A DNA stretch of 64,000 bases from a virus, in UHGV virus genome UHGV-0171787. One strand, given 5' to 3'. The notes beneath the pieces were generated by a model, which ran no database searches, had not been told where the DNA came from, and saw only the letters and a list, made by a program, of their open reading frames with translations. Within the stretch, counting starts at the first letter, position 1, and each line of letters opens with the position of its first letter. The translations under genes and the position numbers were made by a program. Shown piece by piece: positions 41,646 to 42,947 of this stretch.

Positions 41646-42947
41646 TCACACTTCAAAAGAGAAACCGCGACCCGATTCATCGGCAAACCGAACTGTACGG
41701 GTTTGAGGTTCTAATACTTCAGGGTTGTTGGCAACAAATCTATCAGCGAGGCTATCTCCTAAATCCTCTATCACATCTTCATCAGTCCACACAGTCCTAA
41801 CCGGTACATCAAAGTCACCAGCAACAAAACCCTGACCGGAGAATTGACGTGCGCTGACAGTAAAGTCATTTGACCGACCACGAGAAGAACCAGTCATCCA
41901 CCGCTCTGTAGAACCGTTCGTAATACCAAGAGCCTCTTCAAAAGATGTTCTAGGATCGGGGCTTTCACTTCGTGACTCTTGTGCTCGACGCATTTCAGGG
42001 ACTGCAAACACCCCTTCCATTGTGTTGTGATGATTAGTCTCATCTTCCCGACCAAGTAGATCTCCACTTGTATTGGTTGTTAAGTTTGTCAACCCTTCAG
42101 ACCAATACGCACTAATCTGACTAGATCCATGAACACTTGACATTAACTGGATTTCTTCATAAGGGATTCCAAAGAATCGACTCATGTCACGATTAACACA
42201 ATACTGAGCACTTGTTGTATCCTCAACAAGAGCAACCTGACCCCATTCATTGATCAGATGACTGACCGGTTGAGGTGTGGGAAGATATCGAGATTGTGCC
42301 ATATATTGGTATGCAACAGATGGAGCGGAGAATCTTAATACCTGTGAATTAGGCCACTTCTTGTGAACATACTTGATTTCACGACCAGAAACAACTACTG
42401 GACAGGGGGAGGTCATAGCCAAATATCCATGAGGGGTCATGAATAGATTGTCAAGAGTAATCGCACCACGGCACATCATAGGAAAGCTGTCCAACACCTC
42501 TTCAATAGAAGTAGGATAGTTAAACATGAATTGGATACGAACCCCACTCCACTGGAACTCAATAATATCGGTAAATGTTAACAGAGATCCTTCAGCGTAG
42601 GCTTCATTCGTAGCTTCAGCAAGAAGGGAAGAGTACTCAATATCTTGAGACTCGAGCCACTCTTTCACGTTACTTTCAACCTCTCGTCCGAGATCTTGCC
42701 ACTGGTCATGGTGGATAAAGGTGTTTCGAGTTCTTGGGGCCTGTCCTCTGACAATAAAGATATCAATGTCATGAGGTGCTCTGTTATTAAGAACAGCATC
42801 ACGAACAGCCCCACCAGTGATGATGGGACAAATACAGTCTGGAATCAAGTTGTTGTTAATCAGCTGTTCAATGAAGTGACGACCAACAGCGATATCAGGT
42901 TGTTGAGCAACCTTATCTGCAATTCGGTTAATCGGGATAACAATCAT
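41646..42947 (-). CDS. Pol-beta superfamily nucleotidyltransferase (CCA-adding-enzyme-like head) with large unknown C-terminal region
   Basis: ATG at 42947 (MIVIPINR...); ITGGAVRDAVLNNRAPHDIDIFI matches the G[GS]..D.D head motif of tRNA nucleotidyltransferase / poly(A) polymerase. Confidence 0.5.
   Translation of the reverse strand: MIVIPINRIADKVAQQPDIAVGRHFIEQLINNNLIPDCICPIITGGAVRDAVLNNRAPHDIDIFIVRGQAPRTRNTFIHHDQWQDLGREVESNVKEWLESQDIEYSSLLAEATNEAYAEGSLLTFTDIIEFQWSGVRIQFMFNYPTSIEEVLDSFPMMCRGAITLDNLFMTPHGYLAMTSPCPVVVSGREIKYVHKKWPNSQVLRFSAPSVAYQYMAQSRYLPTPQPVSHLINEWGQVALVEDTTSAQYCVNRDMSRFFGIPYEEIQLMSSVHGSSQISAYWSEGLTNLTTNTSGDLLGREDETNHHNTMEGVFAVPEMRRAQESRSESPDPRTSFEEALGITNGSTERWMTGSSRGRSNDFTVSARQFSGQGFVAGDFDVPVRTVWTDEDVIEDLGDSLADRFVANNPEVLEPQTRTVRFADESGRGFSFEV

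Follow-up and report, generated by a model that had tools for sequence, protein, structure and literature searches.

A divergent class II-type nucleotidyltransferase lacking tRNA-specificity elements in the replication module of phiEco32-like phages

The 64,000-nucleotide window analyzed here, from the virus genome UHGV-0171787, carries a minus-strand gene for a 433-amino-acid (aa) nucleotidyltransferase (NTase), in which a reading made from the sequence alone had recognized a head motif like that of CCA-adding enzymes and poly(A) polymerases, followed by some 350 residues described as featureless. The motifs and domains which confer tRNA specificity on class II enzymes (RRD, EDxxR, body, and tail) are missing from this protein. 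The reading which we favor, with some hesitation, is that it represents a stand-alone, highly divergent class II-type NTase of a phage-specific “head-only” assemblage, and that a nucleotide is transferred to, or held on, an acceptor other than tRNA which is tied to DNA replication or to the protection of replicating DNA from host nucleases.

The open reading frame (ORF) begins with an ATG at position 42947 and ends with a stop codon at positions 41646 to 41648, and the head motif picked out in the sequence-only reading, ITGGAVRDAVLNNRAPHDIDIFI, corresponds to residues 43 to 65 (window positions 42753 to 42821). The start codon begins one base past the stop of the upstream gene, which encodes a DNA polymerase exonuclease (exo) subunit (ATGTAAAATG), and MIVIP forms the start of every aligned ortholog. 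Judged by sequence identity, the window belongs to a phiEco32-like podophage, a coliphage of the Kuravirus/Gordonclarkvirinae group, the approximately 14 kb around the gene being ~92% identical to phiEco32, NJ01, SU10, and others. On the same grounds, the NTase is assigned as an ortholog of phiEco32 gp73 (phi32_73) and a member of PHROG 12715, the profile of which it matches across residues 1 to 433 (E = 1.5e-225). By tblastn, the gene was located in 98 records, each of a kuravirus-like phage of Escherichia or Shigella, with 84% identity to phiEco32 and related phages and 78 to 85% for the best 40. The gp73 orthologs resemble the window protein over their full length and occupy the same slot between the exo subunit and a dCTP deaminase, and the window copy has a shorter tail than many of them (433 versus 437 to 456 aa). 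Because it is an ortholog of phiEco32 gp73, which carries the RefSeq label “nucleotidyltransferase,” the gene is already known at the annotation level, and its family is annotated but uncharacterized; a single peptide of the SU10 ortholog, CDS74, was recorded by virion proteomics (PMC4281155).

The structure of the protein was predicted with AlphaFold from two alignments, A1, consisting of close orthologs only, and A2, a 30-sequence family alignment which includes distant members retrieved by an exhaustive search. The predicted local distance difference test (pLDDT) score was 32 with A1, whereas with A2, residues 1 to 290 were modeled with a pLDDT of 87.7 and a predicted template modeling score of 0.84, and pLDDT was below 50 from residue 291 onward. 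In the predicted model, residues 39 to 170 adopt the class II head fold and carry an invariant GG...DxD site for magnesium and a nucleoside triphosphate (NTP). The closest solved structures are CCA-adding enzymes and poly(A) polymerase I (PAP I), of which only ~150 to 168 residues superpose; the Foldseek E value was ~1e-4, with a template modeling score of only 0.31 to 0.42 on the 300-residue query, about half of which matches the fold. Among viral models, the fold matches were short (167 to 254 aa) “poly(A) polymerase head” proteins of podophages, among them LKD16, phiAS7, PP2, LIMEzero, and Cd1.

Profile comparisons led to the same placement. PF01743 (PolyA_pol) scored 19 bits against a gathering cutoff of 23 (E = 0.0018), covering profile positions 3 to 66 of 126 only, and this subthreshold match recurred independently in 18 of the 30 family members; the family profile compared with CCA enzymes in the PDB gave an E value of 0.0044, over motif A only. 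Searches of close orthologs against the PDB with phmmer and hmmsearch returned nothing meaningful, and the window protein had no match in NCBIfam or PADLOC. The hub of these relationships is phrog_1614 (the LKD16/phiKMV gp16 family, 9.5e-40), members of which are here termed mini-NTases and which links to E. coli Cca (8.7e-11) and to the antidefense protein Gad2 (8e-6); the window protein matches it at 5e-7 and its relatives match at 3.5e-11 to 5e-9. Comparison alignments were assembled for class II enzymes (n = 11; E. coli Cca, PcnB, and nine phage enzymes), mini-NTases (n = 8), and Gad2 homologs (n = 40), and hhalign related the family to the mini-NTases at 93% (E = 2.6e-7), to Gad2 at 88% (E = 2.8e-6), and to class II at 84% (E = 7.6e-6), and the mini-NTases to class II at 96% (E = 1.3e-9); Gad2 against class II (8%) was not significant. 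When single sequences (E. coli Cca, LKD16 gp16, and Gad2) were set against the family, motif A only was aligned. Homology to the class II head is regarded as solid, and the sequence-only assignment of an NTase with a head resembling that of CCA-adding enzymes and poly(A) polymerases is borne out by both the profiles and the predicted fold, which place the protein with class II heads and not in an unrelated fold.

The motif anatomy of the family is an alignment-based inference upon which two hhalign and two MAFFT runs agree. In A2, residues G45, G46, R49, D50, D60, D62, and F64 are invariant, while P41, W97, E99, S107, L108, Y117, I128, Q139, M141, P156, Y193, and K197 are nearly so. Motif A (GGxVRD...DxD, residues 45 to 62), which is invariant in the 30 members and aligns to PDB entry 6ibp, is intact; its columns are also invariant in class II enzymes and mini-NTases, and in Gad2 this holds for GG and DxD only. 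Motifs B and D, the body, and the tail are missing. The RRD of class II motif B is replaced by xFP (SFP at the aligned position in the window protein), the F155 column being R in class II and the P156 column, which is P in 25 of 26 family sequences, being D in the mini-NTases, Gad2, and class II (the D of RRD); no conserved RRD was found anywhere in the family alignment. The hairpin formed by residues 124 to 146 and the succeeding helix (148 to 153) have their counterparts in the hairpin and motif-B helix seen in mini-NTases and in Gad2, and the class II “flexible loop” between hairpin and motif B is absent from the family. No conserved [ED]DxxR representing motif D was detected in the family, and residues 118 to 215 gave no profile signal against the class II region from beta4 to motif D. 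The signature R189-[DE]-x-x-Y193-x-x-K196-K197-x-P aligns, with low confidence in both instances, with the class II R..RF helix just past motif D and with the Gad2 stretch LRVQKYxxK. A mapping of its REIKY onto EDxxR was dropped, the subregion profile comparisons without motif A being nonsignificant. PF12627 (body/tail) had no match in the window protein, although the same library detects it in E. coli Cca (7.9e-15).

The third catalytic carboxylate of class II enzymes is a Glu on the strand after the beta-turn, as in BstCCA. That Glu falls on the E104 column, where no more than 15 of 26 members have E. The Q139 column (IQxM), by comparison, is Q in 26 of 26 family sequences and in 20 of 20 Gad2 homologs and D in 8 of 8 mini-NTases, and at position 127, on the first hairpin strand, every sequence in A2 has D or E. 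Candidate third ligands, judged from the alignments, are Q139, E130, D/E127, or E104; the assignment of D/E127 as the third carboxylate is unsupported, as the mini-NTase and Gad2 alignments place Q139 there.

Relative to class II enzymes and PAP I (PF01743; PDB 1miv, 3aql, 4wby, 3h37, and 1ou5), the Kuravirus protein thus scores below the Pfam gathering threshold, lacks EDxxR, flexible loop, body, and tail, has xFP for RRD and Gln (or else the poorly conserved E104) where the third acidic ligand is expected, and consists of a core of ~215 aa joined to unrelated C-terminal parts. The mini-NTases (phiKMV/LKD16 gp16, phiPSA2 gp20, and phi80-18 g27) are the best profile-profile match of the family; they share the hairpin-then-helix arrangement, the absence of the class II flexible loop, and a conserved acid on the first hairpin strand, and, like the Kuravirus NTase, they sit in DNA replication modules beside primase/helicase, ligase, or DNA polymerase. 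They differ in their length (167 to 254 aa), in an invariant Asp (DVD strand) and a motif-B Asp (FDFNLNQ) where the Kuravirus protein has Gln139 and Pro156, respectively, and in having no counterpart of the helical subdomain and 143-aa acidic tail which the Kuravirus protein adds. Replication genes were recurrent neighbors of phrog_1614 NTases in T7-like, phiKMV-like, and phi80-18-like Autographiviridae (loci L019 to L025 and L007), one phrog_1614 record being annotated as a “putative ppGpp synthetase”; a related-locus search with LKD16 gp16 as the query returned LKD16 gp16 alone.

Beyond the head, the claim that the remainder of the protein is featureless does not hold for residues 66 to 290, which are covered by the conserved elements above and by a confidently folded helical subdomain; it applies only to residues 291 to 433, a poorly conserved acidic tail. 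No relatives of residues 200 to 290 were detectable, with no match in Pfam, NCBIfam, or PADLOC; a zf-CCCH_11 match to residues 220 to 253 (E = 0.012) was seen in 1 of 30 members and was dismissed as noise. Identity among kuraviruses is 87% over residues 1 to 290 and 64% over residues 291 to 433, and the tail has 29 indel columns, a net charge of -13, and a polar or charged residue at 69% of its positions. In the family as a whole, the region past the core ranges from 53 to 266 aa and shares no motif. The tail is an appendage specific to the lineage, probably disordered, and lies outside the conserved function; a universal C-terminal aromatic docking motif comparable to those of T7 gp2.5 and gp4 was considered and rejected, as it occurs in some members and is absent from many.

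A word-indexed protein search retrieved only orthologs with at least 72% identity, and an exhaustive HMMER search of 1.84 billion representatives returned just 31 clusters, all from phiEco32-like phages. The distant members are 270 to 480 aa in length, the matched region extending from residue 1 to approximately 215 and in some to ~300. On the minus strand of the window, the gene order is primase/helicase, exo subunit, NTase, dCTP deaminase, small ORFs, a Dps-like gene, thioredoxin, ThyX, and, further on, PolA, and contigs with members only 25 to 30% identical (L002 to L004) carry helicase, exo, NTase, dCTP deaminase, thioredoxin, ThyX, and, further on, PolA. Helicase, exo, NTase, and dCTP deaminase always follow one another in this order, and the NTase gene belongs to the syntenic core of the module with which phiEco32-like phages replicate their DNA and metabolize nucleotides. 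Scans of its surroundings for promoters and terminators found no site separating exo, NTase, and dcd, promoters being at or below shuffle expectation and terminators slightly above it (5 versus 3.3 ± 1.8).

One relative has a phenotype. Precomputed Pfam annotation lists a weak match to PF26128 (“Gad2”) on the window protein and most of its orthologs. Gad2 (Gabija anti-defense 2), from SPbeta-like phages, has 400 aa and a predicted NTase domain; SPbetaL7 becomes sensitive to Gabija once the gene is deleted, a Brevibacillus prophage homolog blocks Gabija on its own, and the SPbetaL7 copy is toxic upon expression (bioRxiv 10.1101/2023.05.01.538930). How Gad2 acts had, according to a February 2026 review (PMC12904381), yet to be established. 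Both proteins combine an N-terminal class II-like NTase with a two-part architecture and similar overall size, share an invariant Gln on the catalytic hairpin strand (the Asp-to-Gln change being common to both) together with similar F-x-x-x-C-x-G and R..KY..K patterns, and link to phrog_1614. Gad2, however, lacks RD after GG and keeps the motif-B Asp, whereas the Kuravirus family keeps RD and has Pro at the latter position, and Gad2 lies in an accessory antidefense locus of temperate Bacillus phages, whereas the Kuravirus NTase is a core component of a replication module. The PHROGs of Gad2 were not matched by the window protein, and two relatives match phrog_4400 only at an E value of ~0.008.

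Under the reading which we favor, an NTP or deoxynucleoside triphosphate (dNTP) would be bound in a pocket between the head and the first neck helix, formed by G45/G46, D60/D62, Q139, R189, Y193, and K196/K197, and the nucleotide would then be transferred to, or merely held on, an acceptor other than tRNA. The acceptor would most likely be a nucleic-acid 3′ end or a nucleotide arising in phage DNA replication, the acidic disordered tail probably recruiting a partner protein, and either replication would be supported or the phage DNA would be guarded against host nucleases while it is being copied, in the way that the distant relative Gad2 acts against Gabija. A further proposal, which we consider doubtful, is that the Kuravirus NTase and Gad2 form one functional class of Gln-bearing phage NTases that nucleotidylates a DNA end, a nucleotide signal, or a host protein and thereby neutralizes immunity of the DNA-end or nuclease type (Gabija, perhaps others), and that this counterdefense became fixed in the phiEco32-like replication module; were this so, it would be one source of the broad resistance, so far unexplained, which Gordonclarkvirinae show to restriction and other defenses. 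Of the two functions offered in the sequence-only reading, that of an antidefense enzyme gains some weak support from the Gad2 link.

Several points weigh against these proposals. With Gln at the third metal-ligand position, the protein could be no transferase at all. Once motif A is removed, none of the profile comparisons is significant (family against Gad2, E = 0.087; against mini-NTases, 0.19; against class II, 0.75), and the finer residue correspondences (Q139, P156, R189, and others), which rest on alignment and topology, are of moderate or low confidence. The synteny is weak evidence of functional coupling because it is inherited within one phage lineage, and literature searches returned no functional study of gp73-type or gp16-type NTases. 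The C-terminal half of the Kuravirus protein is, moreover, unrelated to that of Gad2, and antidefense genes are usually accessory and located in variable early regions, whereas the Kuravirus NTase is a core gene among replication genes.

The other function offered in the sequence-only reading, tRNA 3′-end (CCA) repair that counters host acceptor-end or anticodon nucleases, is now very unlikely. CCA-adding enzymes and PAP I are indeed the nearest solved structures and their motif A is nearly identical to that of the window protein, and a tRNA-like element which encodes no CCA, invoked as a partner of the enzyme, lies at window positions 58969 to 59047 (minus strand). This element, however, scores 28.1 bits against an Rfam cutoff of 29, its T-arm and acceptor stem being good but its D-arm poor and an extra region being present, ARAGORN detected no tRNA in the window, and the NTase gene lies 16 kb away in the replication module. 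In the early region of phiEco32, at what the coordinate offset suggests is the counterpart position, lies a normal tRNA-Arg(TCT) whose CCA is encoded; no more than one tRNA occurs per kuravirus, and the host already has Cca. Canonical phage CCA-adding enzymes belong to a different PHROG (phrog_2244), the 475 phage records of which are essentially large tRNA-rich phages and never kuraviruses. Canonical CCA-adding enzymes have ~370 aa or more (412 aa in E. coli Cca), against a conserved core of ~215 aa here, and the short superposition and the loss of RRD, EDxxR, body, and tail argue in the same direction. Bona fide CCA repair is unlikely because the tRNA-binding domains and templating motifs are missing and because of the tRNA and phrog_2244 evidence. 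A poly(A) or RNA 3′-tailing enzyme, marking host or phage transcripts for decay such that their nucleotides feed phage DNA synthesis, is less probable still, as PAP I depends on a neck, a body, and RNA-binding regions (PF12627), none of which this protein has, the net acidic tail (-13) is unfavorable to RNA binding, and the ribose-reading RRD motif is absent.

Loss of catalysis offers a different explanation, namely, an inactive nucleotide-binding pseudo-NTase serving as a structural or regulatory subunit of a split DNA polymerase or replisome, with the acidic tail tethering partners. The invariant Gln where related NTases have the third carboxylate, the translational coupling of this core gene to the exo subunit of the split polymerase, and the long acidic disordered tail are all compatible with such a role, yet GG, RD, and DxD have stayed strictly invariant despite deep divergence, as is typical of active enzymes, the third carboxylate might come from E130, D/E127, or E104, and Gad2, which has this Gln too, shows a clear phenotype, the toxicity of the SPbetaL7 copy being compatible with activity; we consider the explanation unlikely. 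The remaining alternative concerns restriction-modification (RM): Gordonclarkvirinae are strongly RM resistant with neither a modification nor an inhibitor known to account for it, and Humolli et al. pointed to the dCTP deaminase and NTase pair, speculating that it modifies DNA, and Gabija is absent from the systems tested on this group (PMC11990801). A covalent DNA or dNTP modification to which the NTase contributes together with the dCTP deaminase would agree with the adjacency of the two genes in all relatives, and the loss of the RRD motif, which contacts the ribose 2′-OH, is compatible with dNTP substrates. Measured against 200 Markov-2 simulations of the whole window, several sites are strongly and selectively avoided (observed versus expected, CCWGG, 4 versus 95; CTGCAG, 0 versus 21; GATC, 144 versus 292; GAATTC, 6 versus 24; GGATCC, 2 versus 11), but avoidance does not cover the sites of EcoRV (GATATC, 31 versus 19), EcoKI (9 versus 7), or EcoP1 (AGACC, 93 versus 115), so avoidance alone fails to explain the RM resistance. 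The modification itself nevertheless appears improbable: none has been demonstrated, the phage encodes ThyX, which argues against a simple replacement of T by dU, and the mini-NTase relatives live in T7-like and phiKMV-like phages, for which we know of no report of modified DNA; nor, to our knowledge, does any DNA hypermodification pathway involve a Pol-beta/class II NTase.

Head-only class II-like NTases adjoin replication genes in many podophages (T7-like, phiKMV-like, and phiEco32-like), none of them with a known substrate, and Gad2 is the only relative with a phenotype, that of blocking Gabija. The Kuravirus protein stands out through its distinctive motif set, in which GG and DxD are intact, Gln replaces the third acid, and ribose and base-templating motifs are absent. 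Kuraviruses are common therapeutic coliphages, unusually restriction resistant without a known cause, and the BASEL isolates are genetically tractable; study of the NTase could bring to light an acceptor or a chemistry that is new for a very old enzyme fold, and could account for part of the defense resistance of this phage group; should it prove to be a housekeeping accessory of replication, it would still be a core gene, so far without an assigned function, of a widespread phage lineage. The coordinates of the gene, its parts, and its neighbors are collected in Table 1.

Table 1. Window coordinates of the NTase gene, its predicted regions, and neighboring genes
Feature	Window position	Strand	Basis
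NTase gene, phiEco32 gp73 ortholog	41646..42947	-	ORF, tblastn, phrog_12715
Residues 1-38: N-terminal strand and two helices ahead of the catalytic core, conserved family-wide	42834..42947	-	DSSP, A2; 91% identity among kuraviruses
Residues 39-170: predicted Pol-beta-type NTase head domain of the class II (CCA/PAP) kind	42438..42833	-	
Residues 41-67: motif A, PIITGGAVRDAVLNNRAPHDIDIFIVR	42747..42827	-	Invariant columns in A2; PDB alignment to 6ibp
Residues 124-146: beta-hairpin TFTDIIEFQW-SG-VRIQFMFNYPT	42510..42578	-	DSSP, hhalign, two MAFFT alignments
Residues 147-161: helix and loop SIEEVLDSFPMMCRG where class II motif B (LEEDLKRRDFTINA) sits	42465..42509	-	hhalign posterior 0.5-0.6 versus mini-NTases, MAFFT
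Residues 189-199: signature R[DE]xxYxxKKxP (REIKYVHKKWP), helix 188-197	42351..42383	-	A2, four-group column table
Residues 200-290: helical subdomain of kuraviruses and nearer relatives, confidently folded	42078..42350	-	pLDDT 83-94
Residues 291-433: acidic Ser/Thr/Gly/Arg-rich tail ending ...GRGFSFEV, probably disordered	41649..42077	-	pLDDT <50
DNA polymerase 3′-5′ exonuclease subunit (phiEco32 gp74)	42949..43506	-	PF01612 E = 6.7e-9, phrog_38876/403
dCTP deaminase, directly downstream of the NTase	41091..41624	-	PF22769 E = 1.5e-33
Primase/helicase, group I intron between its parts	44293-45543 + 43500-44045	-	
ThyX	38516-39172	-	PF02511
PolA without exonuclease	34029-35873	-	

Three further features of the window were recorded. 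The primase/helicase gene is split exactly at ...YDNFG|QNEWED... by a group I intron (Rfam RF00028, 86.3 bits; window positions 44046 to 44305, minus strand), an insert of ~247 nucleotides without an ORF, and its exons are 100 and 99% identical to the unbroken phiEco32 gp75. A near-identical copy of the intron was present in one other record only, that of Escherichia phage VTCCBPA_211, the remaining matches (70 to 79%, partial) being in Vibrio, Bacillus, and Pseudoalteromonas phages. An HNH/NUMOD4 homing-endonuclease-like ORF of 182 aa (window positions 46172 to 46720, minus strand), called as 177 aa on the source contig with NUMOD4/HNH_3 matches, directly precedes the gene for gamma-glutamyl cyclotransferase, at a site where phiEco32 has only small hypothetical genes annotated; it fits the “homing endonuclease insertions” mentioned for this locus (PMC11990801). 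Finally, in the homolog of phiEco32 gp83 (glutamine amidotransferase-like, 676 aa; window positions 48946 to 51055, minus strand), residues 114 to 676 only are intact, at 98% identity, the first ~113 codons being split into short ORFs by a frameshift, an assembly error, or decay to a pseudogene; the catalytic N terminus of class II glutamine amidotransferases sits in the region that is broken here.

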